From positions 16,896-80,895 of the forward strand of contig JANRIL010000011.1 in assembly GCA_033764955.1 (NCBI GenBank): a stretch of 64,000 nucleotides of DNA, given 5' to 3'. Source of the stretch: Cyanobacteriota bacterium. GTDB lineage: Bacteria; Cyanobacteriota; Cyanobacteriia; Thermostichales; Thermostichaceae. Below are positions 2,331-62,973 of the stretch, piece after piece (position 1 is the first letter of the stretch; each line of letters begins with the position of its first letter). The notes below the pieces were generated by a model. It was not told the origin of the DNA. It saw nothing but the letters and a program-made list of their open reading frames with translations, and made no database searches. The position numbers and the translations under genes were made by a program.

Positions 2331-2431
2331 TTTCTGTTGAGATCTTCTTGAGACTCTCTAGAATCTCTTGCGTGAAGTGAGTGTCATTAAAAATGCTTGA
2401 TTCAAGATTAAAAGAGACAAAATTCACTTAG

Positions 2432-3136: not shown

Positions 3137-3192
3137 TGAAGCCATTATCCCCATTTCCCTATCTAGCCCAGAATCTTTGCTCCCCTATTCCT

Positions 3193-3999: not shown

Positions 4000-4245
4000 C
4001 CTCTAACCCCCATAACATCGATAGGTGATGGATGCAGCATTTTATTATCCAGAACAACCCTTGCCAGAACCATCACCATAGTTAGGCTAAGGCCGAATTT
4101 CACAGAATCTTTTGTCAGGGATCCTTTGCAGAGACATTAAAGCATAACTGCACAAAACCTCATCTTTCCCTACTCATTTTTGCAGGTTGCTCTCAGGCAA
4201 ATTTCTCTATTCTAAAAGAAGAGATTCCCTGTTAGTGCTGCTGTC

Positions 4246-4467
4246 ATGACCCAAGCCCATCTCCCCTACTCCAGCCTTGCCACCCCCTTCTCCCCCGCCT
4301 CTCCCCACCAACCTACCCACAGGGACTGGCGGGATCCCTTGTCTCGCCGCTTCCCCCTACTGTTGATTGGGGTGCCTCTACTCATTAACCTGCTGGTGAT
4401 TGCCGCCGTGACTCCCCCCGATGTCCTGCAACCCTCTCCCGCAACCCTATCTATCTCCCAGCCCTAG
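4246..4467 (+). CDS. small Pro-rich hypothetical protein with one predicted TM segment
   Basis: ORF only. One hydrophobic stretch (FPLLLIGVPLLINLLVIAAV). No recognisable family. Confidence 0.25.
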   Translation: MTQAHLPYSSLATPFSPASPHQPTHRDWRDPLSRRFPLLLIGVPLLINLLVIAAVTPPDVLQPSPATLSISQP

Positions 4468-39849: not shown

Positions 39850-40644
39850 CTATAGCCCGGTGACACGACAGAGGATTTGCTGGCTGGCCAGAGTTTCAAA
39901 TTGGGATCGAATCGCTTTCGCAAATGTGGGGTTTTCAATCAGGATCCCTGCTTCGATGTTGCGTTGGTGGGCGGCTTCGGTGAAGTTAGCAGAGGTGATC
40001 AAGGTTCTTAATTCATCCACAACAAGACACTTGGCGTGGAGACAGGCATTCGCGGATGTAGTGGGATCCAGAGCGCGCGGATCATGAAAGACTTCCGGAA
40101 GGCGTGCACCAGGCCAGGACTGGCGGAAGTTATCCGTGAACTGCTTAATGATGGTCGAGGAAGGTGTTGGATCACTATACTTGCGTTGGATATTGATGAA
40201 AAGCCGGACTTGCAAATTGGGGATACTCTCCATGCGCTGGGCGAGGGGTTGAAAAAGTTCCCGCCCCTTACTGCCCCAGTCGATGGCAAAACTGGAGATC
40301 AGCAAGCTGTGCTGGGCTGTACGAAAGAGGTCTTTGACGACAACAGCAGTGTCGCGGCTTTCGGATCCTGGTAGCTCCGGGCCAGTCCAGACCAGATCAA
40401 ATGGCTCCCGATACAGAGACTGTTGCCCTTCCTCTGCCAGCAGGTTGAGCGAATAGGCGATGTGGTGAGGAGTCATACCCTTGTTGTGAAGGTGATTGAG
40501 TTCGCTGACGAAAAGGTGAACCAAATGGTCAGGTACCAGTCCGTTGAGGGAAATGGGTGTGCAGGGCAACAGGAGCCGTCGATGGCTCAAAGCTTCACTG
40601 AGGCTTTTAAGGGTTGGGCGGCTGAGGTGGTGAAAGGGAGACAT
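39850..40644 (-). CDS. drmC: phospholipase D-family (HKD) nuclease, DISARM DrmC-like
   Basis: HKD motif LHAKCLVVDELRTLITSANFT (about 40012-40040). The ATG overlaps the drmB stop (TAATG at 40644). Confidence 0.75.
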   Translation of the reverse strand: MSPFHHLSRPTLKSLSEALSHRRLLLPCTPISLNGLVPDHLVHLFVSELNHLHNKGMTPHHIAYSLNLLAEEGQQSLYREPFDLVWTGPELPGSESRDTAVVVKDLFRTAQHSLLISSFAIDWGSKGRELFQPLAQRMESIPNLQVRLFINIQRKYSDPTPSSTIIKQFTDNFRQSWPGARLPEVFHDPRALDPTTSANACLHAKCLVVDELRTLITSANFTEAAHQRNIEAGILIENPTFAKAIRSQFETLASQQILCRVTGL

Positions 40645-42545
40645 TAGATTAGGGTATCTAGGAAGAAAGCCGCTCCCAAGTTTTCCACTGTATTGACCAC
40701 CAGAGCGCGATCTAAAAGTTCGTTACGCCGTTCGCAAGACGTTTCCCCAATCAGGAGGCAGCCATGACAAGCAGCTCCGTGCAGGAATCGGTCTTCTTGA
40801 GGGTTATCCGGTTGGTGTTGGGCACAGACGGGATCATTGGAGCACAGGCGACCATAGTCCAAGGCTCTACTAAGATGATCTTCAATATGGCGACCAACAT
40901 CCACAAGCCCGCCTAAAGTCCCCTCGGATCCTGATGTGCCGGTGTGTAATAGGATCCCATAGCCAATTCCTGGAAAAACATAGATGCGTTCGCGAATGGC
41001 ACTGGAAGTGTAGCCACAATCCAGAGAAACACTGGTGATCAGTAGATGGGAAAGGGAATGTAGCATGATGTAGGGTGCGCCAGGGAAATCAAGTCTGTTT
41101 CGTGGGATCCCACGTTCATCTGCCCATTTCTCAAAGCCACGGATCAGGGTTTGGGCGCGTTGTTTGACAGGTTCACGTTGGAGCCAAGCCTCGATAGCCG
41201 CTGGTTTGAAACTGATGAAAACCCCTTCCCCCAAGTTCTCAATTGCCGGGATCCACTTGGGTTCAAAGTCAAGGCTGGCACGGCGGACACCGATGGCGAG
41301 TTCATCTTCAATTTCGCCGTTGATACTGGTGGGGGCTGATTCAAAGCGAGTAAAGCCAATCAGAGCAACGACTTCCCGTAGACGATGAACAAGGACGATT
41401 TTGTCAATGTAGGGATCCCAACGCGGATCAAGTTGGCTAGGGTGACGGGTAGCTCCATCAAAGATCTTGCTGGCGGGCGTAGGTCGGCCTTGTTCGAACG
41501 GACAGGCCAGTAAAGCTTCCAGTTCCACCTGTTTGATGCTCTTATCTTCAGGGATGGTGCCCTGCTTACGACGTTGCACTTCTTCCCAGACAGCCTTGGC
41601 TCCGAAGGAAACAAGATCTTTGAACTTGGGCTTTTTTAGTTCTTTTTGGATGTCAGTTGGGTCTTCGGCAAATTGCAGGTCTTCGGTGTAGAAGGGATCC
41701 ACAGCTTGGCGTAGTTCACTGTCGGGATCCGGCATAGAGATGACACTCAGCAATTGGCTAAAGTAGGCATTGCTGGCGGAGCGGATCAACAGGCGATTAT
41801 ATTCCGGTTTGTCACTGGGAAGCGGATTACCCTGTGGGTCAGGGATGTATTTGCAGCAGGGTTCTTGACCGCTGGATCGCAGCCAGGGGCGATAGCCTTC
41901 GCAGTAGCCCAAAACTTTGGAGTCTTTGAGTTTGGCTTGGGAAAGGGGGCGGCGTTTGCCGGTTTGCTCACAACGGACAAAGATTTCCTCAAAGTCGTTG
42001 CCGGATCCCGCTTCATCCAGCCACAGTTGTCCGCGAAGGGTGGTCTGAAAGTCGTTGTGCACGAATGCGTACCAGTTGATGTCGCTGAGATGCCCGTTGG
42101 GGCAGGCTTGTACAAACCGAACGGGCACAAATTGAACTTTTTTGCCTCTAAATTTACCCTCGGATTTGACCACACTCCAGGGGACGAGGGGACGGGTGCG
42201 ATAGGTTTTTCCATTAAACTCGAAGGGTTCATCCACTTGAGCGAGAAACCAGGCGGGAAAGACAAAGGCATCGACACCACTTTTTGGGGCTTGAGGATCC
42301 TGCGATTGGGTAGGTGGAGTGCGGAGTTGGATATCTTGTCCGTCATCCAGGTTGAGGGCACGAATCACTTTGGCACGGAGACGGTCTTCGCGGATGTACT
42401 GGGTTTCTCCTTTCCAGTAGGTTAGTCCAGAAATAATCACTGAACGGTCAGGCAGATCCACCATGGCACCAGGGCCAAATGTGGTCAGGAGTTGGCTTTG
42501 GCGTAGTTCGCTATCAGGGGGACGTTGTTTTGACTGTTTGCTCAT
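40644..42545 (-). CDS. drmB: DUF1998-domain protein, DISARM DrmB-like
   Basis: N-terminal QLLTTFGPGAMVDL and a C-terminal Zn-ribbon-like Cys cluster (CSNDPVCAQH...ACHGCLLIGETSCERRNELLDR) typical of DUF1998. The ATG at 42545 lies 2 nt after the drmA stop. Confidence 0.75.
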   Translation of the reverse strand: MSKQSKQRPPDSELRQSQLLTTFGPGAMVDLPDRSVIISGLTYWKGETQYIREDRLRAKVIRALNLDDGQDIQLRTPPTQSQDPQAPKSGVDAFVFPAWFLAQVDEPFEFNGKTYRTRPLVPWSVVKSEGKFRGKKVQFVPVRFVQACPNGHLSDINWYAFVHNDFQTTLRGQLWLDEAGSGNDFEEIFVRCEQTGKRRPLSQAKLKDSKVLGYCEGYRPWLRSSGQEPCCKYIPDPQGNPLPSDKPEYNRLLIRSASNAYFSQLLSVISMPDPDSELRQAVDPFYTEDLQFAEDPTDIQKELKKPKFKDLVSFGAKAVWEEVQRRKQGTIPEDKSIKQVELEALLACPFEQGRPTPASKIFDGATRHPSQLDPRWDPYIDKIVLVHRLREVVALIGFTRFESAPTSINGEIEDELAIGVRRASLDFEPKWIPAIENLGEGVFISFKPAAIEAWLQREPVKQRAQTLIRGFEKWADERGIPRNRLDFPGAPYIMLHSLSHLLITSVSLDCGYTSSAIRERIYVFPGIGYGILLHTGTSGSEGTLGGLVDVGRHIEDHLSRALDYGRLCSNDPVCAQHQPDNPQEDRFLHGAACHGCLLIGETSCERRNELLDRALVVNTVENLGAAFFLDTLI

Positions 42546-42547
42546 GA

Positions 42548-45500
42548 TTATTGCTCTCCATAGGGATCCCGAATCCAAACATTGACGGTGGCTTCCACGT
42601 CCCGAAGGCTACGGTGGGCCTTAAATTTGCGCCGTTCCAGATCAGTATCTGCTTGAGTGTCTAAGGCATCTACCAACAAAGGAGCCGCTAAATCGGTCTC
42701 GCTTTGATACTGCAGGCGAGTATCACGACCCAGGATCCGTTCCCAACTATCCAATAGGTCTAGCACCTGAGATCTTACTGATTGGCGGATTTGCTCCGTA
42801 TCAGTTTGGGTCAGATTTGGGTTGTGGGCTTCAGCACGTTCGGAGATGGTGGTCAGTAAAGCTTCGACGGCTTGGCGCTGGCTATTGATTTGAGAAGCTC
42901 CTAGGGGAGTTGTCATTGCTCGAATTCCAAGTCGAGCTAGAGCTACCGTTACCCCTGCCAGTCCACGATCCAGGGCACGGGGGGAGAAGGGAGTGACACT
43001 GGTGGCTTCAACAGAGCGGTAAAAACTGGTGTGCCAACTCTGAAATTGCTCGTAGTGGGAGCGATCGCGGGGGCGATGGACATTGAGTAAGGTGACGACT
43101 AATCCAGGGCGTTTGGGATCCCGTCCAACGCGGCTGGTGGCCTGAATATATTCAGAGGCATTTTTGGGTTGACCCAAGACCACCATCAGCCCCAACCGCA
43201 CGATATCCAGACCGACCGAGATCATATTGGTGGCGAGGGCAACATCCAGGCGGTCTTTCTCATAGAAGGGCATAGCCAGACGACGTTTAGTGTTGGCAAC
43301 TTTATTGGTTGGCACCCGTGAGGTTAGCTCTTCTAAGTCATCGTCGATTTTGCGATCCGCGAAAGAACCGGAGGATTCTCCATAGCGAAGGCGGTTACTA
43401 TAATTTCGCAATTGAGAACTCACTTCGTCTTCAATGATTCGACGACTTCCCCCCAATTCCCGTAGAGAGTTGAAGTATCCTAACAGCGTCATGTAGGGAT
43501 CCGCTGGGTTCTGTTGGTTACGGGATCCGCCCGCTTGCTCATATTCCTTTTGAGCAGCGGACATCAAAGCGAGATAGGCTCTCAGTAAAACCACTTTTAA
43601 GCTGCGTCCTTGAGCGGCAATGCCCACATAGAGGCGACCATCGGAGTCAAAATCTGTTTTGGCGAAAAAAGAATCGTGGCGATCTGGGCCTGGTGGTGGG
43701 AAGATTTCCACATGCTGGCGTCCAAAGAGGGCTTGGATCTGATGTGTGGCGCGGCGAACGGTAGCGGTGGAAGCAATGATCTTGGGACGTACCCTCAGCC
43801 TCTCTCCCTGAGAAGAGAGGAGTTCGGCGGTACAGAGGGCATCGATGGCGGTCTCGTAGAGTCCTACCATTGTTCCTAAGGGACCGGAGATGAGATGCAA
43901 CTCATCCTGGATGATCAAGTCTGGTGGGGGGAGATAACTGCTGAGGGGTTGTCCGGTGGGGGTGGGATCGGCTGTGCTACAGAAACCTTGCGTGGGGTCG
44001 AAGTGAGTGACCCGACCGAATAGGGCGGCGGTTTGCCCCACCCAGGGCAGTCCGGCAAATTTATCGACGGTGGCGATCATGAAGCAGGGGATCCGCCTAT
44101 AGATGGGTTCATCCACAGCTAGGATGGGGAGCGGGTTATGGCTGCGGAAATGGCAGGTACGGCTGACACAATGGACTTTGAGGTTGTTGGGTTGGTCTTC
44201 GCTGGGATGCAGTTGAAAGGAATTGGGGGTGAAGGATTCCCCACACCACGGGCAACGTTCTAGAGGAATGGGGGAGGGTTTGGCTTTGCTATCTCGCTTG
44301 TAGGCCAGGGTACGGGCACGGGCAGTGTTGTCGTCTTTGTCTTTACTGGATCCCATGCGGTTGGGGGTAGCACTTTGTCCGACCCAGAGACCAATCTCGA
44401 AAGGCCAGGATCCGAGTATTGCTTGATTGCTTTGCCGTTCTAGCTCCAAGGCGCAGATGAGGCGAGAAGCCCGTTCCAGTTGATCCAGGGTTAAAAGTCG
44501 CAAAGTGTAGCGCATCAAGACGCTCAGTCCGGCGGATTGGATCCCTGGGTGGGTAAGACGGCGCAAAATCAGGGTGAAGGCAGCTAGTCCCAGATAGGCT
44601 TCGGTTTTACCGCCACCCGTAGGGAAAAAGAGCAGATCAACTGCGCCTCGGTCGGGAGAGGTGGGATCCAGAATTCCCACCAGGTTGAGCAGGATATAGG
44701 CGATTTGGAAGGGTCGCCATTGGGGTGGAGCAAAACTTTCAGGGGGTAGGCTCTGCTCTTGACTCAGTTGTTGGCGGCGAGCACGGGCGATGACTTTGTT
44801 GGCTAGTCGAAAAGCTGTGAAGATGTTGGGGTCTGTCAGTGCATTCAGTCCAGCTTCGATGCGGTTGCAGGCGTAGTTGGCTCGATCCAACAAGTCTTGG
44901 GCAGCAGCGGTGAAACAGGGATCCAAATGGATTTGGCGTTGCGCCTGGATCCAATGGCGGTATTCGGTAACGAGGGATCCCAACATTTGTTGGATAGTGG
45001 CCGCATTAGTGGCATCCGCGAGGGCTTCCATGCCCAGTTGGAGATCCGGAATATCGGCGGGTTTGACACGGGGAACTTCGCCGGTGGGGATCCAGGCTGT
45101 TCGAATGGTGGTGCATTCACCCTGCGACAAGTCGCCGAGTGAGGCGCGAACGGTGACTTCAGCGGTGGCCGAGACGTTATGGCCCACTGCGTACTCGAAA
45201 TCGTGACGGTATTGCAGGCTGGCGACGGCTTCATCCCAATCATTGCTGTTTTCTCCACGGGGATCCCGACGCGGTTGAAATCCCTCAGAGCAGTGGAGAC
45301 TCAGTTGGGTTTGGAAACAAAAATCAGCGTCTTTGTTTTTGGTGTGACTGGGGCGATAGTTGACCACAAAACATGAGACAGAGCAAGTACCCACCGGAAA
45401 ACCCTGAGCATTAACTGGACGACAGGTGATCACCAGTTGTAGCCCACTGCCGTTGGGAATGTCGTAATGGTTGGGGGAGCCGGTTTGGATGCGGATAGGG

Positions 45501-45973
45501 ATTTCCAAGGTTGCCGATTGGGGGATCCGTTGCCAACGGTCAGGCTTGCGTTTTTTATCTGAACTGCCAGACTCGGTGTCTTCAGGGGTATCTGGGCTGG
45601 GATCCGGTTCTAAGGGCAGGTAGTCTGCCCAGGTCAGTGTGGCAGTTATGGCTTGAGTGGTTGGCTTGGTTAGGAAACTCAATCCCATTGAGGAAGGAAA
45701 CCAAGCTTTGCGGGCCGGAGCTTTATCGGAGAGTTGGCTATCTTCGCTGGTTTCACTATTGGCCAGGGATTCGAGTTCGTCATCGGCGGTGTCATCGGAG
45801 CGGATGTCGGGGGGTGCGCCGTAGGGAACCAGAAACCCTGTGAGATACCACTTAGAAGGATCCTGGGGCAAGATTTCGTGGGTGTAGTCGGGATCCTGGG
45901 GGGTGGGGCCGATGAGATCCAGATGGAGAGCTTGGATGAGCTTAGAGCGGACTTGAGCAGGTGTCGTTGACAT
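42548..45973 (-). CDS. drmA: large SF2 helicase, DISARM DrmA-like
   Basis: Walker A FFPTGGGKTEAYLG (about 44588-44632), DELH box IIQDELHLISGPLG, motif VI QATSRVGR. The ATG at 45973 was chosen; the longer ORF overlaps the PIN gene. Confidence 0.8.
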   Translation of the reverse strand: MSTTPAQVRSKLIQALHLDLIGPTPQDPDYTHEILPQDPSKWYLTGFLVPYGAPPDIRSDDTADDELESLANSETSEDSQLSDKAPARKAWFPSSMGLSFLTKPTTQAITATLTWADYLPLEPDPSPDTPEDTESGSSDKKRKPDRWQRIPQSATLEIPIRIQTGSPNHYDIPNGSGLQLVITCRPVNAQGFPVGTCSVSCFVVNYRPSHTKNKDADFCFQTQLSLHCSEGFQPRRDPRGENSNDWDEAVASLQYRHDFEYAVGHNVSATAEVTVRASLGDLSQGECTTIRTAWIPTGEVPRVKPADIPDLQLGMEALADATNAATIQQMLGSLVTEYRHWIQAQRQIHLDPCFTAAAQDLLDRANYACNRIEAGLNALTDPNIFTAFRLANKVIARARRQQLSQEQSLPPESFAPPQWRPFQIAYILLNLVGILDPTSPDRGAVDLLFFPTGGGKTEAYLGLAAFTLILRRLTHPGIQSAGLSVLMRYTLRLLTLDQLERASRLICALELERQSNQAILGSWPFEIGLWVGQSATPNRMGSSKDKDDNTARARTLAYKRDSKAKPSPIPLERCPWCGESFTPNSFQLHPSEDQPNNLKVHCVSRTCHFRSHNPLPILAVDEPIYRRIPCFMIATVDKFAGLPWVGQTAALFGRVTHFDPTQGFCSTADPTPTGQPLSSYLPPPDLIIQDELHLISGPLGTMVGLYETAIDALCTAELLSSQGERLRVRPKIIASTATVRRATHQIQALFGRQHVEIFPPPGPDRHDSFFAKTDFDSDGRLYVGIAAQGRSLKVVLLRAYLALMSAAQKEYEQAGGSRNQQNPADPYMTLLGYFNSLRELGGSRRIIEDEVSSQLRNYSNRLRYGESSGSFADRKIDDDLEELTSRVPTNKVANTKRRLAMPFYEKDRLDVALATNMISVGLDIVRLGLMVVLGQPKNASEYIQATSRVGRDPKRPGLVVTLLNVHRPRDRSHYEQFQSWHTSFYRSVEATSVTPFSPRALDRGLAGVTVALARLGIRAMTTPLGASQINSQRQAVEALLTTISERAEAHNPNLTQTDTEQIRQSVRSQVLDLLDSWERILGRDTRLQYQSETDLAAPLLVDALDTQADTDLERRKFKAHRSLRDVEATVNVWIRDPYGEQ

Positions 45974-45981
45974 GGAACCCC

Positions 45982-46554
45982 CTAAATCTCGTAGCAAATC
46001 TGGCGGAGCATAGAAACGGATATCGGCAGTCCCTGTCTCAGCAGAATTTCCAGATGTTCTTCCACAGTCACGGGTGGATTGCATAACCGCTTTCTTACTG
46101 TTTCTACCACTTGAGCGATTTTGAATGGCTTCAAGTCTATGACAGAAGCAATAAACTCATCAGGGTGCTGTACCTCAATGTCGTAGGGAGCTAATGCCTG
46201 CTGTGGAAAGTCTTTGAGGTTGAAGGTGACAATCACATCCACTCCCCCTTGGATGGCAGCAGCAAGGACATGGCGATCCTCGGGATCCGGTAACTGTAGA
46301 GCAGGAATCAAGGATTCATAGCCTGTAATTAGACAGTCCCGAACATGACTATTCATTAAGTCCTTGGTGCGGGTGAGCTGCTCTAGTGTCAGGTCAGGGC
46401 GATCTTTGAGGACGTTCCGGATCCACTCCTCATGAATTTGATTTGTCCATTTGGCTCGGAAGAGATCAGTAAGGGCTAGCTGCATAAGAAGATCCCGCAG
46501 GGGAGCGGGATAAAGCACACAGGCATCATAGAGAGCTGTGTAGTTGGATGACAT
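45982..46554 (-). CDS. PIN-domain toxin (paired with an HTH antitoxin)
   Basis: ALYDACVLYPAPLRDLLMQLALTDLFRAKWTNQIHEEW..., a later acidic residue (DPEDRHVLAAAI) and FNLKDF are typical of PIN toxins that pair with excisionase-type HTH antitoxins. ATG at 46554. Confidence 0.7.
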   Translation of the reverse strand: MSSNYTALYDACVLYPAPLRDLLMQLALTDLFRAKWTNQIHEEWIRNVLKDRPDLTLEQLTRTKDLMNSHVRDCLITGYESLIPALQLPDPEDRHVLAAAIQGGVDVIVTFNLKDFPQQALAPYDIEVQHPDEFIASVIDLKPFKIAQVVETVRKRLCNPPVTVEEHLEILLRQGLPISVSMLRQICYEI

Positions 46555-46555
46555 G

Positions 46556-47011
46556 CTAGTAGCCCATACCCAGTTCTTGGGCTTGGAGAACCAGATCATT
46601 GAGGGCTTGGGATCTGGCTGCGTCTGTTTTTTGCTTGTAAGCCATGAGGTCTTGGAAACAGATGCGGCGGTGTTTGCCGACCGTTCGATAGGGAATCTCG
46701 CCGGACTCTAGGAGTTTGATCAGGAAGGGACGGGAGACGTTGAGGATATCGGCGGATTCTTGGGTGGTGAGTTCGGCATGAATGGGAATGAGGGTGACGG
46801 CGTTGCCCTGTGCCATCTGAGCCAGGATATCGACCAAAAGGTGAAGGGCACTGGCAGGAATCTCGACGGTTTCTTCACTGCCATCCTCTTCAACGACTTT
46901 GAGTTGACGGGTAGCTCCACCCAGATGAGCCGACAGGATCCGGCTGCTGACTTGAGAGAGCTTAATTTCAGACTCCGTTGGTAGTTGGAGCCTTGGGCTG
47001 GAGATTGCCAT
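46556..47011 (-). CDS. excisionase-family helix-turn-helix antitoxin
   Basis: HTH_17-like segment LTTQESADILNVSRPFLIKLLESGEIPYRTVGKHRRICFQDLMAYK. The stop lies 1 nt before the PIN start. Confidence 0.7.
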   Translation of the reverse strand: MAISSPRLQLPTESEIKLSQVSSRILSAHLGGATRQLKVVEEDGSEETVEIPASALHLLVDILAQMAQGNAVTLIPIHAELTTQESADILNVSRPFLIKLLESGEIPYRTVGKHRRICFQDLMAYKQKTDAARSQALNDLVLQAQELGMGY

Positions 47012-47062
47012 AGGAATCTCGGTATTGTGTGTGGGTTGTGTAATGGAATCACTTTAATCCCG

Positions 47063-47080
47063 TAAACGCAATAAACGCAA
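47063..47080. promoter_or_regulatory. perfect tandem 9-mer TAAACGCAA x2 upstream of the HTH-antitoxin gene (candidate operator)
   Basis: Read directly: 47063-47071 and 47072-47080 are identical. They lie 52-69 nt upstream of the antitoxin ATG (47011). Confidence 0.35.
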
Positions 47081-47106
47081 CAGGCAAAACAAACCAATAA
47101 TCTGCG

Positions 47107-47259
47107 CTCCCTCAGGATCTGAGTGTTCAGGACAGCTTGGCCATTGCGGATGAGTTGATCCTGAGTTTCGTTTACGGTCTGGCGTTTTTTAGGATCAATG
47201 CTGTCATAAGCATCAATAAGGATATTGGTATCGAACTGCTTCGCAACGCTGACGCGAAC
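47107..47259 (-). pseudogene. 5' remnant of a PIN-domain (VapC-like) toxin gene
   Basis: The frame reads GFVRVSVAKQFDTNILIDAYDSIDPKKRQTVNETQDQLIRNGQAVLNTQILRE, with a PIN N-terminal FDTN motif. There is no in-frame start codon after the upstream stop, and similarity ends near 47105. Confidence 0.55.
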
Positions 47260-47265
47260 AAAACC

Positions 47266-47499
47266 TTAGTGCTGGTGTCGGTCATAGAGATCTTCTCGTT
47301 TCCAGTCACGACCTGAGGTTGTGCGACGGTTCAAGCTTTGGATAAACGCTTTCTGCTTTTCCCACACCTCGATCCTGGTTCGCTGATCAATGGGTTCAAC
47401 CAGGGTGAGTTCCACCGTTTGCCCCTCAAGGCTAGGATCTAGCTTTTCCGAAAGGATCAGGTTGCCGTCACGATAGGTTGCGGTCAGAATCTGACTCAT
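47266..47499 (-). CDS. AF2212/DUF104-like antitoxin
   Basis: MSQILTATYRDGNLILSEKLDPSLEGQTVELTLVE is the typical DUF104 antitoxin N-terminus. It is followed by the PIN remnant. Confidence 0.6.
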   Translation of the reverse strand: MSQILTATYRDGNLILSEKLDPSLEGQTVELTLVEPIDQRTRIEVWEKQKAFIQSLNRRTTSGRDWKREDLYDRHQH

Positions 47500-47529
47500 G
47501 GTTTCTCCTCGGCAGATTTTCTGTTGATC

Positions 47530-48702
47530 CTAGTCTAAGCCAGGGATCCCAGGGGTCTCGGCCTGCTTGGATTTACGAGAGGATCCTTTGGGCTTGGCTT
47601 GGGATCCCCCGATGATCTCCTCTTGATAGCGTTGCTGGTTGAGTTTGAGCAGGCGAGCAAGGACTTCATCGTGGACTTCTTCGGGCCAGCGATAGCGCCA
47701 GGGTTTCTTGCGTTTGCTGGTTCCTTCGTCGTCTTCGTCTTCGTAGTCGAGCAGGAATTCGCAGTCGGTGGGGATGTCGTGCCAACCGTAGGCATCGAGG
47801 ACGGCACGATCCATTTGGGCATGGAGTTCGCGTTGTTTGAGGATATCGGGGTTGGTTTCGTCGGGGTCGTGGAAGCGGTTGTAGGTGGCGGTGAGTCCCT
47901 CGTTGTGGCGGATCATGAGATCGGCGCGGAATTCGTAGTAGGTTTTGCCTGCGGCTTCGAGGATGGGGTTAGTTTCCCAATCAAAAGGGAAGGGGAAGGT
48001 TTCAAAGCAGTCAGAAGGCGTGTAGCGGAGGTCATCTTTCATAGATGAACCCAAGAATCGCGCCCAAATTTCATGAATACGAGATTGAAGAATACAGAAA
48101 GTAGAGTAAGTTCCAAGTGAGACAACAATAAGTTGTTCAGAATAAACCATCCCGCTTGGTAGAAATGTAAATGCTCCAGTTTGACTAACACGAGGAATAA
48201 CTAACACCCGATCGCACTGGGCGATCGCTTTTTGAAGGTCTAGAGCAGGGCGAGCAAACATCCACCATCTTGCAGGATTTACAATTGAGCCTTGTGTTAA
48301 CCTTTTAGGCTTAACCTTCTCTTCCACGATTGCCATCAAGTCCGGATACTTCTGCATCTCATCTTCCTTCATGTCACCAAAATTAATCACATAGCGATGA
48401 TGAGCATGAGTGGGGCTACTATTCACTTCCTCACCGCCAATGTAAGGAAAAATCCGTTCTGCATTGCGCGGATCTTTTTCGATTAAGCGGTGCATTTCTG
48501 CAATAGGGGTCGCATCGGAATTAGAGTCATCAAACGTAAACCCCATCCCTAACACATAGCTACCTACGAAACTCTTGTTAGCATTTGCCAATAACACAGC
48601 AGGGTCATCATTTCCACCTTTTGCAAACAAAAACGCCGTAATTTTTTCAACAGGTTTGCCATCCAGTAAAATCGGAATATCAGGCGGAAAAGATTGCAGC
48701 AT
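47530..48702 (-). CDS. drmMI: C-terminal (target-recognition-like) fragment of the DISARM DrmMI-type methyltransferase
   Basis: ILLDGKPVEKITAFLF...ANANKSFVGSYVLGMGFTFDD...DPRNAERIFPYIGGEEVN...HHRYVINF continues the MmeI/Eco57I-like architecture where the 933-aa ORF stops. Confidence 0.65.
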   Translation of the reverse strand: MLQSFPPDIPILLDGKPVEKITAFLFAKGGNDDPAVLLANANKSFVGSYVLGMGFTFDDSNSDATPIAEMHRLIEKDPRNAERIFPYIGGEEVNSSPTHAHHRYVINFGDMKEDEMQKYPDLMAIVEEKVKPKRLTQGSIVNPARWWMFARPALDLQKAIAQCDRVLVIPRVSQTGAFTFLPSGMVYSEQLIVVSLGTYSTFCILQSRIHEIWARFLGSSMKDDLRYTPSDCFETFPFPFDWETNPILEAAGKTYYEFRADLMIRHNEGLTATYNRFHDPDETNPDILKQRELHAQMDRAVLDAYGWHDIPTDCEFLLDYEDEDDEGTSKRKKPWRYRWPEEVHDEVLARLLKLNQQRYQEEIIGGSQAKPKGSSRKSKQAETPGIPGLD

Positions 48703-48737
48703 AATCCATGCTTTAGAGTGACAAAGTTTTTAGTGCT

Positions 48738-49154
48738 CTACGGCAATAACAAGTTTTGAAATGGTTGATTGTTTTTCCAGCGATACGTGTTGAAGTCTCG
48801 CTGATCGACTGAGAAAATGCGTCCGTGTCCTAAATGCTCAGCCAAAATCACTAGAGAAGCATCTGCCAAATCCATTGGTAAACTGGCATATTGCTTCATT
48901 AGTTTCGCAATTCTTGAACCAGATTCAGATGGTAAATCAAAAACATTAAAAAGTTTTTGGTGGTAATTGTTGATGAATGCGATTTGTGCCTGTACCCCTT
49001 TACGAGTAAGTAACAGATAACAAGTCTCAGTCATAACAGACCACGTTGTAATGAGAGATTCATCATAGGTTTGAAAAGCTTGATTGGCTGCTTCGTGATA
49101 CCTATCTTTTGCATCAGCGAGTGCCAACCAAAAACCCGTATCAACGATGATCAT
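48738..49154 (-). CDS. vapC: PIN-domain toxin VapC
   Basis: MIIVDTGFWLAL...TTWSVMTETCYLL...DLADASLVILAE...IFSVDQRDF, with the four acidic PIN positions recognisable. Confidence 0.8.
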   Translation of the reverse strand: MIIVDTGFWLALADAKDRYHEAANQAFQTYDESLITTWSVMTETCYLLLTRKGVQAQIAFINNYHQKLFNVFDLPSESGSRIAKLMKQYASLPMDLADASLVILAEHLGHGRIFSVDQRDFNTYRWKNNQPFQNLLLP

Positions 49155-49398
49155 ATTTTGTATTCCATCCCTCTGAAAGCACTTGTTTATAGTCTGTAGA
49201 AAGATTTTCTTCTACAGAGACACAACCAATAAATCCGCTCTCTTTGAATTTCTGATAGGAACTGTCCTCAGCGTTTGCTTTCGATTGATCTACCTGCGGA
49301 TATCGCTTTTTCAGGATTTCAATAAAATCCATCAGCAATAGTTGAGCCTCTTCAGGCAAGGCTTGAATATCTTGTTGCATCTGTTCCAGGCTAGACAT
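49141..49398 (-). CDS. VapB-type antitoxin (DUF2281-like)
   Basis: MSSLEQMQQDIQALPEEAQLLLMDFIEILKKRY is a typical small antitoxin. It overlaps vapC by 14 nt, and its ATG shares one base with the stop of the truncated methyltransferase ORF (TAATG at 49396-49400). Confidence 0.65.
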   Translation of the reverse strand: MSSLEQMQQDIQALPEEAQLLLMDFIEILKKRYPQVDQSKANAEDSSYQKFKESGFIGCVSVEENLSTDYKQVLSEGWNTKYDHR

Positions 49399-52199
49399 TA
49401 TGCAGCACCTCCAACCATCGTTTTTTCGCGGGCAACTGTCCCGATCTTCATGATATGCACTAAACTCACCACCACTGCCGCTAATCCCGGCCATTTGTAA
49501 CGGCGGGTGGCGTTGTAAATCATGCCGCCATTGTTGCAAATAAACCGGAGGCCGGTGCTGCGAGTGTCGCCCTGAGCGATGGTGTTGGTCGCAATTAAAC
49601 CAACCGTGCCGCCCCAACGCAGCAATGTAAACGATCGCCTAAAGAAGTGCGCCACCAGATCCGCATTGCCGTGAGATTCGGGATGCACAATTTTCAACCA
49701 CTCCAGATACCCCTCAGGATGGGCGTTAATCGTCGTATTTTTCCCCGCAAACGGTGGATTGCCCACGATCGCATCAAACCCCGAATTTTCCCGCTCAAAC
49801 ACTTCAGGAAACTCTAATTCCCAGTTAAACGGCTGTACTGCCTTGGTTCCCGTTGTTAGCTTGGCAACAACTGATTGAATTTCAGATTCATCCACCAATC
49901 CCTTCTCATAGCCAATCAATTTACCGCCAAATTCCTCACGATATTTCTGCCGTTGTTTGGCATTGTCACCCGCAAAGAAAGAGGCGACTGCGACTTTTGC
50001 TGTTAATCGAGCCGGTTCTAAGGCGCGATCGACATCTTGCAATAACGCCTGTTTTGTCTCCGCATCCCCATCTGATCGCGTATCCGACGTTTGAATCTGC
50101 TGTCGATACGCCAGTGCCTTCGTTGCCGACTGCTTCATTAACAACTTGTGGTCTTCAAAAAACGTTGGCTCATAAGCTGCACTTGCCCCAAAGCTACCAA
50201 TCTCTGTTCTGGTCAGCCCCACCAGCGAATCACCGCACTTGAGCGCATGATCCAAAAACGTAAACGGCAAATCTTTTGCCAGCGTCACCAACCACAGCGA
50301 CAATCGCGCCAGGTTCACCGCAAACGGGTTCTTATCCACCCCATACAAACACCGCTGCGCCACCAATCGCCGCGCCACCACCACATCCTCCACCGTCTCC
50401 GGCAGATCCGCTGGCTTGCCGTGATAGTTCCAGGCTTCCACCAACTTGTCTGCCAACTGCCGACAGGCTTCCACCAAAAACGCCGCAGAACCCATCGCCA
50501 GATCGCACACCTTCAGATCCAACAACTGCTCTGGTGTAGGATGCTCGCCTAAATTCTTCAGCACAGGCTCCAGCGTCTTCTCCACGATCGGCTGCGTCAA
50601 CTTCCGAGGCGTGTAGTGAGACCCCGATCGCCGCCGTTCCTCTCCCGGTTGCAAAAACAGACTGCCTGCCGCTAACAAATTAGGAGTTCTGGACGAAACC
50701 CGACGACCAATGGCAGCAGCAATGTCTTCTGCCGTTTTTGCCTCCTTCAACTCCTTCAAGGCTGCCCCTTTCAGTTCACACTCTGCCGCTTTGAGAATGT
50801 TGACGCGATCGGCTGGCTTTGCCGCCAGGATCTTGTCTACATCCACCACCACATCTTTCGGACGAACGGCGATCGATCGTCCGTGGGCAATCTCCACCTC
50901 ATAGCCCATGATCGCCTCATAAACCGAGCCAATCTGCTCAACATCAAGGGCACGATAGGATAATCGCTCTCCATCCAACATCAGCAGCTTATCCAGCATT
51001 CGGTAAACCACCCCATCTGAGACGCGAGGGGCTTCAATTCTGCCGAAGGTGGCAAAGTGAGAAGCGATCGGGCGACCTTCTAAAAACGGGTACTCATCTG
51101 GGTCAAACAACTGCCCATGCCGCGCGGGAAGGTACTCCTCCGTCGGGCCACCTCCGTCATACACCAGACGAAACAGACTCAACAGCGTTGCCCATGCCCC
51201 ATACCGCTGATCCATCGTGTCTGGGTAGTTGCCTGCATCCTCTCGCAACTTCTCATACAGCCCCGACACCGCGTAGTTGCGCTGATAAACCTCATCATCC
51301 GGCATCAGCCCTTCATCTTCGGCATAGAGCAGGAACACCAGCCGCATCAGCGTGGTGATCAGCCCCCCATAGATATGCTGCGGGTCAGTTTCAGCTAACT
51401 CTCTGAGGATCTTTCCATTTACTGTTGCATCCGCCGCCTGAAACCCTTTCAGTAATTCCCACAGGGCATCCAAAACCTGTTCCGCCAGTTTGGTGGAGAC
51501 CTCGGCTTGATAGTGGCGGCTATCTTCCAGCAGTTGGGGCAACCGTTGCGCTTCTGGCACGTTAAAGAGTCGTTCGGATCCGAGTAGCAGATCCAAGGCC
51601 CCCAAAATCAGACGCCCCGACACCTCGGTCATGGCCTGCACTGGGAACGTCACATGACCGGATGATTCCCCATTGGGGGCAACCACCAAGCGGATCGCGG
51701 TGCCGTTAAACAGGATCCCTTGATAGACCTTGGTTTCTCGCAACAGCCGCTCAAACTTGGCTTGAGAACTGGCTTTCCATCCGTGAGCACTTGCAAAGGG
51801 ATCCTCATCGTCAAAGGGTTGCCCTGTAGGCAGAGTTTGGATGAGCAGGATCCAGGTATCCGCTTGCCCATCCGTCCCTTTCACGGCATAGGTGGGACTG
51901 AGAACCTCGCCATAATTGGGCAAAGCTACCGTTAATTCCTCAGGGGGATCCTTTAGGTCATCAGGCAGCCACCCCAGTACAGTTTGAGTGAAACCAGGAA
52001 AATCAGGGATCCAAGCACAGGGATCCCCTCGCAGCTCAGGCGTTGTGACCGCCAGGAGCTTTTCTTGGAGATCCACCAGTTTGCCTCGATCAATAATGGC
52101 CTGCGCTTTGATCAGAGCAGGGGGAGAGACCACCAGACCGACAGGTTGTAGTAGTCCTAGCCATTCTTTGTGGCGGTAGGTGTCGAGATCTGTGCTCAT
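49398..52199 (-). CDS. drmMI: N6-adenine DNA methyltransferase, DISARM DrmMI-like, N-terminal/catalytic fragment
   Basis: SAM motif VCDLAMGSAAFLVEA and catalytic IVGNPPFAGKNT (about 49735-49776). Then GLIATNTIAQGDTRSTGL...YKWPGLAAVVVSLVHI, after which the ORF ends in 13-14 unrelated residues. Confidence 0.8.
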   Translation of the reverse strand: MSTDLDTYRHKEWLGLLQPVGLVVSPPALIKAQAIIDRGKLVDLQEKLLAVTTPELRGDPCAWIPDFPGFTQTVLGWLPDDLKDPPEELTVALPNYGEVLSPTYAVKGTDGQADTWILLIQTLPTGQPFDDEDPFASAHGWKASSQAKFERLLRETKVYQGILFNGTAIRLVVAPNGESSGHVTFPVQAMTEVSGRLILGALDLLLGSERLFNVPEAQRLPQLLEDSRHYQAEVSTKLAEQVLDALWELLKGFQAADATVNGKILRELAETDPQHIYGGLITTLMRLVFLLYAEDEGLMPDDEVYQRNYAVSGLYEKLREDAGNYPDTMDQRYGAWATLLSLFRLVYDGGGPTEEYLPARHGQLFDPDEYPFLEGRPIASHFATFGRIEAPRVSDGVVYRMLDKLLMLDGERLSYRALDVEQIGSVYEAIMGYEVEIAHGRSIAVRPKDVVVDVDKILAAKPADRVNILKAAECELKGAALKELKEAKTAEDIAAAIGRRVSSRTPNLLAAGSLFLQPGEERRRSGSHYTPRKLTQPIVEKTLEPVLKNLGEHPTPEQLLDLKVCDLAMGSAAFLVEACRQLADKLVEAWNYHGKPADLPETVEDVVVARRLVAQRCLYGVDKNPFAVNLARLSLWLVTLAKDLPFTFLDHALKCGDSLVGLTRTEIGSFGASAAYEPTFFEDHKLLMKQSATKALAYRQQIQTSDTRSDGDAETKQALLQDVDRALEPARLTAKVAVASFFAGDNAKQRQKYREEFGGKLIGYEKGLVDESEIQSVVAKLTTGTKAVQPFNWELEFPEVFERENSGFDAIVGNPPFAGKNTTINAHPEGYLEWLKIVHPESHGNADLVAHFFRRSFTLLRWGGTVGLIATNTIAQGDTRSTGLRFICNNGGMIYNATRRYKWPGLAAVVVSLVHIMKIGTVAREKTMVGGAA

Positions 52200-59751: not shown

Positions 59752-62700
59752 CTAATTAGAGATCGGCCAGAGATAAATTAACCCTACTGGTTCCACTCGT
59801 TCCGCCTTCACCCTATAAGTTTTCTGAATCCGATCTGGTTCTGTTTGGATCTCTTGCTCTAACTGGCTGAGGCGGATTTCCCAGTGACGGTGATCGGCGT
59901 TAATTTGTCGCAATTCATCCGCATTGAATAACCCCAGTTGGATCGTCTCAAATTTGCTCTTTTCTTTGAGGATCCGATCTCGTTGCTCTTGTAAAAGTTC
60001 TTTCATTTCCTTGGCTTCAGACTCTCCTCGCTGGTTGAGTTTACGCTGAGCGCGTTCACTCAGTTCCTTGGCCCGCCGCTCCAAATGAGGGATCAGATCC
60101 TGGACGTCTTGGGGGGCAACCCCTTTGAGCTTCTCCAGCACTGGGGGTGGCACTTCCCGTAGGCGAGGGCTGGCGAGGGAATCCTCTAAAATCTGCAAAA
60201 CATCCTTCTTTTCGCCCTCAGTAACAGGTCTTAAACGGCCCCGACCTCTGGCCTCAGGATCCACCCATTCAGCGGCCACAGTGATGATTTCATCATGCAA
60301 ACGAGCTGCCCGTTCCCCGTACAGCGATAACCGTCCCAAGATCACCACTCGAGGAATGGGATCCTCACTGCGACAGACACAGGCGCGGCTGAGTTCGTGG
60401 TGCAAAAATCCCTGGGAGAGGAACCGTCCCAATAGCCGTTGCACAATGCGGTGCTCTAAATGCAGATGCACCACCTCACCATCCAGGGATCCTGGATCTT
60501 TGAAGACTACCGGACGAATGGGGGCTTCTTTCCGCCAGTCCCAGAGTTTCTGGGTCTTCTGGCGTGGTTGCCTTAGACTGTCAAGAGTCATCGCCCAGGT
60601 GGGATCCGCACCGGCTTCTTGATCGAGAGCAGGCAACAGCCAACGGGAACGTTCATTGTCACCGATGGCTTCCTGGGCAGAGAGAGGCTTGAGGGGTTGG
60701 GATCCGAGTAGCTCCAATGAAACGGACAGAGCCTCTCGAAAATGGCGATCATCCAATCCTAACCATTGCTGCGAGTCACGAAGCATGGTTTCCAACTCCA
60801 CCTGTTGCTGTCGGAGTTTGTCCTGGCGAAGGCGAATGGCTTCCAGTTCTTCCCGAATTGCGCCGCGCCGCTCATCATCGTTGTCTTTGTCGGCCTGGTT
60901 TATAGCGGAGCTGAGACTATCAACCTCGGTTACTCGGATCCCTCGCTCCAACAACTTGGTGACGTTCTTCTCCACCACCGGGGAGAGGCTACCCAATTCT
61001 TCCTGGATCCGTTGGGTCTTTTGCACCAGCACATCCATCACCCTGTCTTCAGGGCGCTGGGGTAAGACGAAGTAATAGCAACGGACTTCAGTCTGTCGCT
61101 GGAGTTTGCGGTCAATCCGCCCATTGCGCTGTTCCATGCGGCTGGGGTTCCAGGGCACATCAAAGTGAAACAGATCTGCACAGTGATTTTGTAGGTTTAC
61201 CCCCTCACGGGCAGCGTCGGTGGCAATGAGAATCCGCAAGGGATGTTTGTGGGGATCCATGTTGAAGGCTTCTTTGATTAAGCGGCGATCCTCTTTACTC
61301 ATCCCGCCATGAAATGTACCAATCCGGTCATAATCACGGTCGGATCCGGCAATCAAAGAGCTTAACTGTTGTTCCAAATAGCGCTTGGTATCAGCGTATT
61401 CGGTGAAAATTAGTACCCGTGTAGGCATCCATGCTGCTCCTGGGGATCCCATCTTGGGGCAGAGGTTTTGACGGATCCAGTCGCCTAATTTTTTGACTTT
61501 GCTATCAGGTTGGTGGCGGCTTCGCTCAGCAATCTGGGTCATCTCTTCTAACAGTTCAAGTTCTTTTGAGGTGATGCCCTCGGTTCCGGAGCGGCTGGCC
61601 TTTTCCATCTGAGCCGTTTCTTCTGCAAAGACTTCCAGTTCATCAAGATCGGCTCGCTCGTCATCGGAGCCTGGAGATTCCCATAACAGGGGATAGGATT
61701 GCTGGGTTTCCGGGACTACTTTTTCTAACTGCTTTTGGATCCCGCGTCGGTGAACCCTCAAAGTGCAAGCAAACGCTTCGATAGAGGACATTAGCCGCTT
61801 TTGCAAAGAGGTGATCACCAACATGGACGTCGTTAGGGTGGAGCGGGGAGCTGATTTCAGCCGTTCCTCTCGGCAGGTTCTATACTCCTGCAGCAGTTGA
61901 GCCAGCGTTAACTCTGGGACATCATCCGGCAATCCATCAATCACTACGGGTACGACATGACGCAATGGAAAATCAGCGTTATTAATTTCTCGTAGATCCT
62001 GCTTAAGACGACGAACCATCACCGCATCCAGCAGTTTCTTGCTCCGTACAGGCACCCCTCGACAAAATCGCTGCGGATCCAAAATTTCTAAAAGCGCCGC
62101 AAAGCTATTGGAGTGTCCGTTGTGAGGGGTGGCAGACAAGAAGAGCCGATGTTCAAAGCGAGGAGCCAATTCCCGCACTGTGCGAGTGAGTTGGGAGTCA
62201 ATGGCATAGCGGGTTCCACTGGCGGGGGCAGCATTGTGAGCTTCGTCGAGGATGAGTAGGGATCCTGGGGCAAAGTCCTGCATCCAGTCTCGTAAGGGTG
62301 CAGCGTAGGTTTCATCCCGCAATAGTGCGTGGGAGATGATAAATCGATTGTGGGTTTTCCATGGGTTCATGCCGTAGCCCCTTTCTCGACGCTTGGCCGC
62401 CACAAAATCTCGGTCATAAACAATGAAGGTGAGCCCAAAGCGGCTCTCCATCTCATCTTTCCACTGATCCACCACTGAGGGTGGGCAAGAGATCACGACC
62501 CGCTTCACCTTCTGCCGCATCAGCATCTCTCGCAGGATCAGTCCAGCCTCTATGGTTTTGCCTAAGCCCACATCATCAGCGATGAACAGATTTACCCTTG
62601 GCATTTTCAAGGCTTTACGAAGGGGTTCTAGCTGGTAAGCTTTGACCTCAATCCCAGCTCGGTAAGGAGCTTGAAAAAGTTTGGGTTCAGTGGAAGTGAC

Positions 62701-62973
62701 ACAGTTCCACCTCAGAGCGTGCAGAAATGCAGAAAATTGGCGAGGTTGATCAAAGCCCCGTTGAGTGACCTGTTCCCAGGAAGAGGTGGCCAAGATCTGG
62801 GCATCAATTTCCCTTTGCCAGAATACATTTAGAGGCTCACCCTGAGCATCGTCTTCCAAACAAGCCAGCCTCACCTGGGTATCCCCTGTGGGGGATGGGA
62901 TAACCTCCTCAACGAGATATTGACGGGAGCGGATTCTAACTATCTGACCCAGTTCTGGAGAGATTGAGTGCAC
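59752..62973 (-). CDS. drmD: SNF2-family helicase, DISARM DrmD-like
   Basis: DDVGLGKTIEAG (about 62548-62583), LILDEAHNAA, ILIATDAAREGVNLQ, DVPWNPSRMEQRNGRIDR. GTG start. Confidence 0.8.
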   Translation of the reverse strand: MHSISPELGQIVRIRSRQYLVEEVIPSPTGDTQVRLACLEDDAQGEPLNVFWQREIDAQILATSSWEQVTQRGFDQPRQFSAFLHALRWNCVTSTEPKLFQAPYRAGIEVKAYQLEPLRKALKMPRVNLFIADDVGLGKTIEAGLILREMLMRQKVKRVVISCPPSVVDQWKDEMESRFGLTFIVYDRDFVAAKRRERGYGMNPWKTHNRFIISHALLRDETYAAPLRDWMQDFAPGSLLILDEAHNAAPASGTRYAIDSQLTRTVRELAPRFEHRLFLSATPHNGHSNSFAALLEILDPQRFCRGVPVRSKKLLDAVMVRRLKQDLREINNADFPLRHVVPVVIDGLPDDVPELTLAQLLQEYRTCREERLKSAPRSTLTTSMLVITSLQKRLMSSIEAFACTLRVHRRGIQKQLEKVVPETQQSYPLLWESPGSDDERADLDELEVFAEETAQMEKASRSGTEGITSKELELLEEMTQIAERSRHQPDSKVKKLGDWIRQNLCPKMGSPGAAWMPTRVLIFTEYADTKRYLEQQLSSLIAGSDRDYDRIGTFHGGMSKEDRRLIKEAFNMDPHKHPLRILIATDAAREGVNLQNHCADLFHFDVPWNPSRMEQRNGRIDRKLQRQTEVRCYYFVLPQRPEDRVMDVLVQKTQRIQEELGSLSPVVEKNVTKLLERGIRVTEVDSLSSAINQADKDNDDERRGAIREELEAIRLRQDKLRQQQVELETMLRDSQQWLGLDDRHFREALSVSLELLGSQPLKPLSAQEAIGDNERSRWLLPALDQEAGADPTWAMTLDSLRQPRQKTQKLWDWRKEAPIRPVVFKDPGSLDGEVVHLHLEHRIVQRLLGRFLSQGFLHHELSRACVCRSEDPIPRVVILGRLSLYGERAARLHDEIITVAAEWVDPEARGRGRLRPVTEGEKKDVLQILEDSLASPRLREVPPPVLEKLKGVAPQDVQDLIPHLERRAKELSERAQRKLNQRGESEAKEMKELLQEQRDRILKEKSKFETIQLGLFNADELRQINADHRHWEIRLSQLEQEIQTEPDRIQKTYRVKAERVEPVGLIYLWPISN

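Follow-up and report, generated by a model that had tools for sequence, protein, structure and literature searches.

The 64,000-nucleotide stretch analysed here (the window; positions 16,896 to 80,895 of contig JANRIL010000011.1 in the Cyanobacteriota bacterium assembly GCA_033764955.1) carries a class 1 DISARM (defence island system that is associated with restriction-modification) operon. Its N6-adenine methyltransferase gene, drmMI, is split into a methylase gene and a target-recognition domain (TRD) gene, with a putative vapB-vapC toxin-antitoxin (TA) pair between them. The data make it very probable that this locus is a recombinant, in which the catalytic-TA-TRD module was replaced by homologous allelic exchange with DNA from a cyanobacterium carrying HIP1 (highly iterated palindrome 1). 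At the level of sequence comparison, the imported tract is placed at ~51444-47636 (~3.8 kb); it begins at drmMI codon ~252, includes vapB and vapC and extends over most of the TRD gene. The same comparison demonstrates the mosaic ancestry, the positions of the junctions, the direction of transfer (into the host genome) and the intactness of the reading frames.

Iterated palindromes across the drmMI interior

In the host draft genome (3.80 Mb in 48 contigs, 51.5% GC, 89% complete, contamination 0.23%), GGATCC occurs 11,709 times (3.08/kb), with a median gap of 219 bp and at similar density in 48 of 48 contigs. Of these sites, 4,915 have the form GGGATCCC (1,293 per Mb), and the genome holds only 109 copies of GCGATCGC, the HIP1 palindrome, and 736 of its core CGATCG (0.194/kb). 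The window contains 231 GGATCC sites, none of which lies between 47602 and 51576. An earlier note on this DNA, made from the letters alone, had put the motif at roughly every 150-250 bp and reported none in 47609-51575, and the counts bear this out. The gap of 3,974 bp is the longest in the window and stands far out in the genome-wide tail, at rank 15 of 11,757; just 2.7% of the genome is taken up by gaps as long as this, and with exponential spacing 0.06 of them would be expected per genome. The gene ends are at host motif density, as the note had also said, with seven sites in the drmMI 5' end between 51576 and 52199 (51576, 51713, 51799, 51848, 51946, 52007 and 52021) and three in the TRD-gene tail (47544, 47581 and 47602). 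As a separate observation, the motif is very dense in both resident ends, at ~11/kb in the first 624 nt of drmMI and with three sites in ~80 nt at 47530-47608.

The block itself (2.77 CGATCG/kb, 0 GGATCC) contains 11 CGATCG cores, at 48209, 48222, 49632, 49766, 50026, 50585, 50625, 50806, 50870, 50874 and 51065, against 0.77 expected from the genomic density (Poisson P = 7e-10). No other gap among the 45 longest without GGATCC in the genome is as dense in CGATCG. A single perfect GCGATCGC lies at 48221, a number similar to that in Pantanalinema drmMI, and the tally matches the one perfect HIP1 and about ten further cores noted earlier.

The two palindromes mark lineages. DISARM loci from the same family as the host (G002, G003, G007, G009, G010 and G013) carry GGATCC at 1.5-5/kb and little CGATCG. 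Across 79 cyanobacterial DISARM loci from outside the family (L037-L116 without L086; 1.02 Mb), GGATCC was counted only 12 times (0.012/kb against 0.21/kb expected, a ~17-fold depletion), with CGATCG at 1.57/kb (range 1-4/kb) and GCGATCGC at 0.77/kb. The two palindrome types are almost mutually exclusive, and since they mark lineages, the motif content of the block is that of a non-family cyanobacterium: like HIP1-type donor DNA, it is enriched in CGATCG and poor in GGATCC. Within the family, the homologous interior of G010 has 10 GGATCC in 3.5 kb and that of G007 has 4 in 1.2 kb, so a resident interior would not be expected to be empty of the motif. Moreover, 9-10 of the 11 CGATCG cores occupy aligned positions that are identical in Pantanalinema (L025), Trichocoleus (L027) or the HIP1-rich metagenome contig L028. 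The resident 5' part does not share the CGATCG positions of donor-type genes, and it has GGATCC where these have unrelated sequence. The depletion of GGATCC in HIP1-type loci could itself result from BamHI-type restriction or from the process that builds HIP1.

Replacement of HIP1 by GGGATCCC has been described in Synechococcus OS-A and OS-B' (JA-3-3Ab and JA-2-3B'a), at 1,160-1,345 copies per Mb (Life 2015, PMC4390886; NAR 2018, PMC5861425). The host resembles these strains in its density of GGGATCCC and in having almost no HIP1, a trait common to the same-family genomes, but it is a different genome, larger (3.8 Mb) and lower in GC (51.5%). Judged from the shared GGGATCCC trait, it probably belongs to the wider family of the Yellowstone OS-A/OS-B' strains, and it is the sole member of its genus in the genome collection compared.

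Ancestry and junctions of the mosaic gene

The N-terminal fragment of DrmMI (933 aa, encoded at 49398-52199) changes relatives along its length. Over residues 1-208 it is 67-71% identical to its best database matches, which are 80-94% identical to one another in that region, and over residues 209-750 it matches Pantanalinema rosaneae CENA516 and Trichocoleus desertorum at 95% identity. Among 401 cyanobacterial genomes, the best matches to residues 1-208 come from the same-family genomes G007 (76%) and G010 (75%), all others being at or below 72%. For residues 451-750 the order is reversed, with 91-94% identity to HIP1-type genomes against ~75% to G007 and G010. Likewise, the only GGATCC-type locus among 80 named loci (L086, which is G007) ranks best for residues 1-235 but twelfth for residues 260-650. 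The neighbouring DrmD protein sides with the family, at 82% (G007) and 81% (G010) identity against 77-78% to donor-type genomes.

Phylogenies of the two segments conflict. In the tree of residues 1-235 the gene groups with G007 and G010 (support 98/93). In that of residues 260-650 it is nested in the Pantanalinema/Trichocoleus group (P0002/P0008) on an end branch of 0.008, with 98% amino-acid identity to Pantanalinema rosaneae (P0002). Approximately unbiased (AU) tests reject a clade with G007 and G010 for the interior (p = 0.0006) and a clade with the donor group for the N-terminus (p = 0.001). The ends of the locus therefore share nearest relatives with same-family GGATCC-type genomes and the interior with HIP1-type filamentous cyanobacteria, which was the comparison proposed in the earlier note. 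Its suggestion of allelic replacement by DNA of a HIP1-type cyanobacterium is upheld by these trees and tests and by the identity steps that follow.

In DNA, the locus is 65% identical to Pantanalinema (L025) over 52199-51445, 93% over 51424-50250 and ~90% from there to ~49200, inside vapB. The drmMI core is 93% identical to Pantanalinema and to Trichocoleus (L027) against ~75% to G007 and G010, and the resident 5' part is 65-69% identical to all homologues, with G007 and G010 marginally the nearest. From 49464 to 47630 the block is 88.6% identical to L028, which has the same vapB-vapC-TRD order, and this identity collapses at ~47630. Outside the block, drmD is 69% identical to Pantanalinema (third-position identity 0.39) and drmA 65-67%, and the drmA-drmB-drmC region as a whole is at 65-69% to HIP1-type loci. 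Taken together, the flanks (both gene ends and drmD) stand at ~65-70% identity to the donor-type genomes.

Synonymous sites show the same step. Inside the block the synonymous divergence (dS) is 0.25-0.51 and third-position identity 0.72-0.88; outside it dS is saturated and third-position identity is 0.33-0.39, with a value of 0.33 to Pantanalinema in the resident 5' part. Codons 251-933 differ from Pantanalinema by a dS of 0.36, and vapB and vapC from L028 by 0.30 and 0.32. Because synonymous sites are affected, constraint at the protein level cannot explain the step in identity.

The other end of the block returns to the family. The tail of the TRD gene has no alignable counterpart in L028, L030 or L025, whereas same-family G002 matches it at ~80% identity, with the GGATCC sites at 47586 and 47549 in identical positions. 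Further along, over the flank containing a 77-aa open reading frame (ORF; 47266..47499, without a Pfam match), G007 is 91% identical in DNA over 47200-47471 and G002 ~80% identical over 47317-47717, with overlapping matches in G013 and G009.

The junctions are sharp. Identity to Pantanalinema rises from ~70% to >90% at 51444-51425, at codon ~252, where the Pfam MmeI_N match ends. This 5' crossover zone (51425..51444) reads TTTCAGGCGGCGGATGC (GFQAADA) and is conserved in all five aligned genes; downstream of it the gene follows Pantanalinema almost base for base, and upstream it is unlike every other aligned sequence. With G007 and L025 as parental proxies, MaxChi places the break at 51533/51530 (0 of 1000 permutations); since the G007 proxy is only 69% identical to the window, we give the crossover as a bracket, 51530-51425. 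At the 3' end, the five-way alignment follows L028 through the conserved C-terminal domain and then G002 from ~47635, and MaxChi places the break at 47632/47629 (0 of 1000 permutations). The 3' crossover zone (47635..47662) lies at the end of that domain, and the recombination breakpoint test that had been proposed is positive on each side. Each junction falls in a conserved stretch at a domain boundary, and the sequence common to resident-type and donor-type genes there is only ~17-27 nt. We found no meaningful direct, inverted or terminal repeats, integrase or transposase at the borders, and no second copy of the block in the host genome. By sequence, the locus therefore appears as a mosaic gene should: adjacent segments conflict in phylogeny, and the breaks are sharp, lie in shared sequence and lack the hallmarks of mobile elements.

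These results refine the outline drawn in the earlier note. The interior is foreign as proposed, and the crossovers do fall inside the gene ends, only residues 1 to ~252 and the last ~34 codons being resident; by ancestry, however, the imported tract is slightly smaller than the motif gap. Its GC content is not uniform, at 54-58% in the methylase core, 39-45% in vapBC and the first half of the TRD gene and 55-57% in the last part. The import of the TRD and of vapBC stands, whereas the catalytic domain was imported whole, with motif I and NPPF, rather than only in its 3' part. Nor was vapBC inserted separately, having arrived within a methylase-TA-TRD unit that was already split.

Two further observations concern the N-terminal region and its proxies. 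The N-terminal segment sits on a long branch (0.4) compared with 0.02-0.04 for G007 and G010, and palindrome gain may have driven amino-acid change in the resident drmMI ends. The G010 drmMI gene (L002; G010:C66, ~1495-4266) changes frame near codons 372-386 and again near 546-554, so that it reads in three frames, and is either a decaying gene or affected by sequence errors in a metagenome-assembled genome.

Origin of the mosaic

These data allow us to propose how the locus arose. A host of the GGGATCCC type would have taken up DNA from a HIP1 (GCGATCGC) cyanobacterium, bearing a homologous drmMI unit that was already split into methylase core, vapBC and TRD gene. Crossing over at two short stretches of conserved homologous sequence (~51444-51425 and ~47662-47635) would then have replaced ~3.8 kb of the resident allele. 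The product would be an in-frame chimera, in which the N-terminal domain and C-terminal tail are resident. Its imported parts would be the S-adenosylmethionine-binding/NPPF catalytic domain, the TRD and, in the slot between these domains, the TA pair. We infer that this took place by RecA-type homologous recombination after natural uptake, and as a single event, since one double crossover with a contiguous core-vapBC-TRD unit, such as HIP1-type genomes contain, explains the whole block.

Several points weigh against this model. No sampled donor is closer than ~93% for the core or ~89% for vapBC-TRD, which makes the donor an unsampled one, and each half has its best match in a different record. 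The resident proxies G007, G010 and G002 are distant (69-80%), and the 5' break is bracketed only to 51530-51425. The block is also only moderately atypical in tetranucleotide composition. Its correlation with the genome, 0.685, is in the lowest 8.6% of 3.8-kb windows, compared with 0.78-0.82 for the resident DISARM genes. The tetranucleotide signature is much less discriminating than the palindrome counts.

The remaining points against allelic replacement are those that favour an assembly chimera, the only serious rival, in which the contig would join resident drmMI ends to the drmMI interior of a co-occurring HIP1-type cyanobacterium. The genome is an incomplete 48-contig draft, the chimeric N-terminal and TRD fragments are each recorded in one contig of one assembly only, and both junctions fall in conserved sequence, where assemblers can cross over. 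Such an artefact would need two joins, the second returning in frame to the same contig, across a shared sequence of only ~17-27 nt; the k-mers of final assemblies are usually longer than this. It would also have to leave four ORFs intact with overlapping stop and start codons, in an assembly whose 48 contigs are all at host motif density and whose contamination is 0.23%. We consider it improbable.

Import in two steps, with the methylase core from a Pantanalinema-like donor and vapBC and the TRD from an L028-like donor, is somewhat less remote but still unlikely. It would account for the different best-matching records of the two halves and for the fall in GC from ~55% to ~40% near 49400. The TA pairs in the slot vary among close relatives and the 5' half of vapB is shared with a PemK-linked antitoxin, so recombination does happen inside the unit. 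Yet the two matches overlap at 49464-49200, where both are ~90% identical; dS is similar in the two halves (0.30-0.51); and the HIP1-type loci L038, L094 and L106 hold contiguous core-vapBC-TRD units. The uneven GC is a feature of the unit itself; in donor-type genomes it has the same drop.

We regard it as exceedingly unlikely that there was no transfer and that a resident block lost GGATCC and kept CGATCG through stronger purifying selection or by chance. The methylase core is indeed the most conserved part of the protein family. However, third-position identity is 0.80 inside the block against 0.33-0.39 outside it, same-family interiors carry their 10 and 4 GGATCC, the trees conflict with significant AU tests, and the probability of finding no site in 3.8 kb is ~8e-6. 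The synonymous sites and the same-family comparison refute the idea that selection or chance produced the gap. An intragenomic donor or conversion, or a shufflon, was likewise rejected, given that the genome has no second copy of the block and its borders no meaningful repeats.

Under allelic replacement, the methylation target has likely changed along with the TRD: the best protein match of the imported domain is 84% identical, so that it is at most 84% identical to any known TRD, and identity to same-family TRDs is ~70%. In Serratia, a class 1 DISARM system without its methylases caused no autoimmunity (bioRxiv 10.1101/2021.12.28.474362). If that result holds here, the swap would have been tolerated because class 1 DISARM lacking its methylases is not autoimmune. 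More speculatively, the methylase-core/TA/TRD unit might be a mobile specificity cassette that moves between distant lineages via the two conserved docking segments at the domain boundaries. In this tentative scheme the TA pair would serve as an addiction or selection module that helps to displace the resident cassette, and the N-terminal domain would be kept through co-adaptation to the local DrmD and DrmAB.

The event is of a known kind. The methyltransferases of restriction-modification systems change specificity by exchange of TRDs or domains, as in allelic exchange of Type I hsdS and in the MmeI-family Type IIG/IIL enzymes, where the TRD sets the target. As in those systems, a TRD-containing homologous segment was replaced here within conserved flanks and the family of the catalytic scaffold is unchanged. 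The drmMI unit differs in lying in a class 1 DISARM operon, in including the whole catalytic domain and a TA pair, and in having passed from one lineage to another whose iterated palindrome is different; the change of target is a prediction. Gene-altering programmed inversions have been shown to vary class 1 DISARM DrmMI and similar Type II enzymes (Nucleic Acids Res 2023, PMC9881135). There too, recombination varies the DrmMI coding sequence, presumably for specificity. Those inversions are reversible, intragenomic and recombinase-driven and draw on resident cassettes, whereas the present case would be a one-off intergenomic replacement in which no inverted repeats or second copy were found.

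A deficit of HIP1 is an established marker of horizontally acquired cyanobacterial genes (BMC Genomics 2012, PMC3497702), including islands of S. elongatus (PMC3025956). In both settings the iterated palindrome of the host is absent from the foreign DNA. The piece described here also bears the core of the donor palindrome at donor density, which makes the direction and broad source of the transfer readable, and it is an intragenic mosaic and not a whole island. Mosaic penicillin-binding-protein genes of naturally transformable streptococci arise by interspecies homologous recombination. They share with drmMI the sharp identity steps within one intact frame, the resident flanks and the lack of a mobile-element signature. 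The drmMI gene, in contrast, encodes a defence methyltransferase and its parents are far more divergent; as they are only ~70% identical in DNA, the crossovers had to use very short conserved stretches. What is particular is an intragenic mosaic of a DISARM methyltransferase, resolved to tens of bases, in which the donor's palindrome cores are still present.

Together these data support a model where a DISARM system was re-equipped in nature, its catalytic and specificity parts being exchanged between phylogenetically distant lineages, with the rest of the operon and the N-terminal domain staying resident. Because the iterated palindromes of the two lineages are nearly mutually exclusive, the DNA carries a built-in barcode, which gives the direction of the transfer, its extent to within tens of bases and the youth of the import relative to palindrome turnover. 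With this barcode, recombination tracts could be traced across whole genomes of GGGATCCC-type cyanobacteria, and the rate of palindrome gain could be addressed. The locus further suggests that a split form of DrmMI, whose TA slot varies, is widespread.

Operon organisation, the toxin-antitoxin slot and other tracts

Pfam and PADLOC identify the locus as a class 1 DISARM operon with all genes on the minus strand, as are all genes and gene parts whose window coordinates are given here. By sequence it unites drmA (helicase), drmB (DUF1998/MZB), drmC (PLD), drmD (SNF2) and drmMI (N6-adenine methylase), the gene set of this class, with PADLOC E-values of 0 for DrmD, 0 and 1.7e-170 for the N and C fragments of DrmMI, 1.9e-292 for DrmA, 7e-72 for DrmB and 9e-112 for DrmC. 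The resident context consists of drmD (59752..62973; SNF2 helicase, PADLOC DrmD) on one side and drmA, drmB and drmC (39850..46084; PADLOC) on the other. The latter are at or above host GGATCC density, with 37 sites in 39850-47608. A 2,493-aa helicase fusion (52212-59693) stands between drmD and drmMI, and a helix-turn-helix/PIN_3 pair between the 77-aa ORF and drmA; the ORF belongs to the family-type flank by its same-family DNA matches.

Within drmMI, the resident 5' part (51445..52199; codons 1 to ~252, with the seven GGATCC) encodes an MmeI_N-like domain, and the imported core (49398..51424; codons ~258-933, 9 CGATCG and no GGATCC) encodes a helical region and a complete gamma-class N6-adenine methylase domain. 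The vapB-like antitoxin gene (49144..49398, 85 aa, read from sequence) has a weak, sub-threshold match to Pfam DUF2281, and its ATG overlaps the stop codon of the N fragment (TAATG). It overlaps in turn the putative vapC toxin gene (48738..49154; 138 aa, GC ~39%), which encodes a PIN domain (Pfam E = 8.7e-9), and all four ORFs of the block region are intact. The TRD gene (47530-48702, 390 aa; Pfam MmeI_TRD, PADLOC DrmMI C-terminal) is imported from codon 1 to ~356 (47636..48702, with the perfect HIP1 at 48221), and its last ~34 codons (47530..47634, with the three GGATCC) are resident. Pfam Eco57I, MmeI_Mtase, N6_Mtase and MmeI_TRD all match the drmMI fragments. The invariant methylase columns D566, A568, G570 and N814-P815-P816-F817 are present, with motif I at ~aa 566 and NPPF at 814-817, both within the imported part. 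By these features the split protein (933 + 390 aa) is a predicted MmeI-type gamma-class N6-adenine methyltransferase.

The split methylase-TA-TRD layout is common in the donor clade. The slot holds VapBC in L028, L038, L094 and L106, PemK in Pantanalinema, DUF433/DUF5615 in L039, L042, L047 and L103, and UPF0175/DUF3368 in L106; as noted above, L038, L094 and L106 are the HIP1-type genomes with the unit contiguous. A DUF433/DUF5615 pair also separates the methylase and TRD parts in same-family G010, and the resident allele was probably already split before the import. In the loci surveyed (L002 of G010, L037-L039, L041, L042, L047, L094, L103, L106 and L116), one to three TA pairs, from different families, recur in a slot at the methylase/TRD junction of cyanobacterial DrmMI, and Nostocales-type drmMI in the surveyed set is uninterrupted. 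About a quarter of the 120 best matches to the N fragment are ~930-970 aa long, the length of the split form, and the 390-aa TRD fragment as query returned 4,096 matches of fragment-like length.

The slot itself appears to recombine. The first 68 residues of VapB (49199-49398) are 91% identical to an antitoxin that precedes a PemK-type toxin in Pantanalinema (L025/L037, 12829-13028). The likeness stops in the middle of the antitoxin gene, at ~49200, so that a common N-terminus is joined to C-termini and toxins that differ; this pattern suggests that the TA cassette contains a recombination point. In L117 (G035:C1:2071000-2086000), two tandem TRD genes that are 78% identical in DNA follow drmMI, one intact (435 aa) and one fragmented, and are themselves followed by a vapBC-like pair. 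This layout looks as if an incoming TA-TRD cassette had displaced an older TRD without deleting it.

Other tracts of the host genome are free of GGATCC and raised in CGATCG (1.3-2.3/kb): C11:1-16277, C45:1-14928, C42:6306-10776, C1:46727-49250 and C20:89133-91430, with 13, 8, 4, 2 and 1 perfect HIP1, respectively. By their motif content, these are probably further imports from HIP1-type cyanobacteria. The window contains a second GGATCC-free block, at 53820-56854 (3,034 bp, 34-43% GC), inside the helicase-fusion gene. With 0 CGATCG, it is not HIP1-type donor DNA; GGATCC is at host density in that gene's 3' end (52.2-53.8 kb), which is also AT-rich. Finally, several GC-rich palindromes are almost missing from the 3.8 Mb of the host (GGCGCC 32, GGGCCC 18, CCCGGG 27 and GCATGC 85), which suggests active or past restriction systems with those targets.

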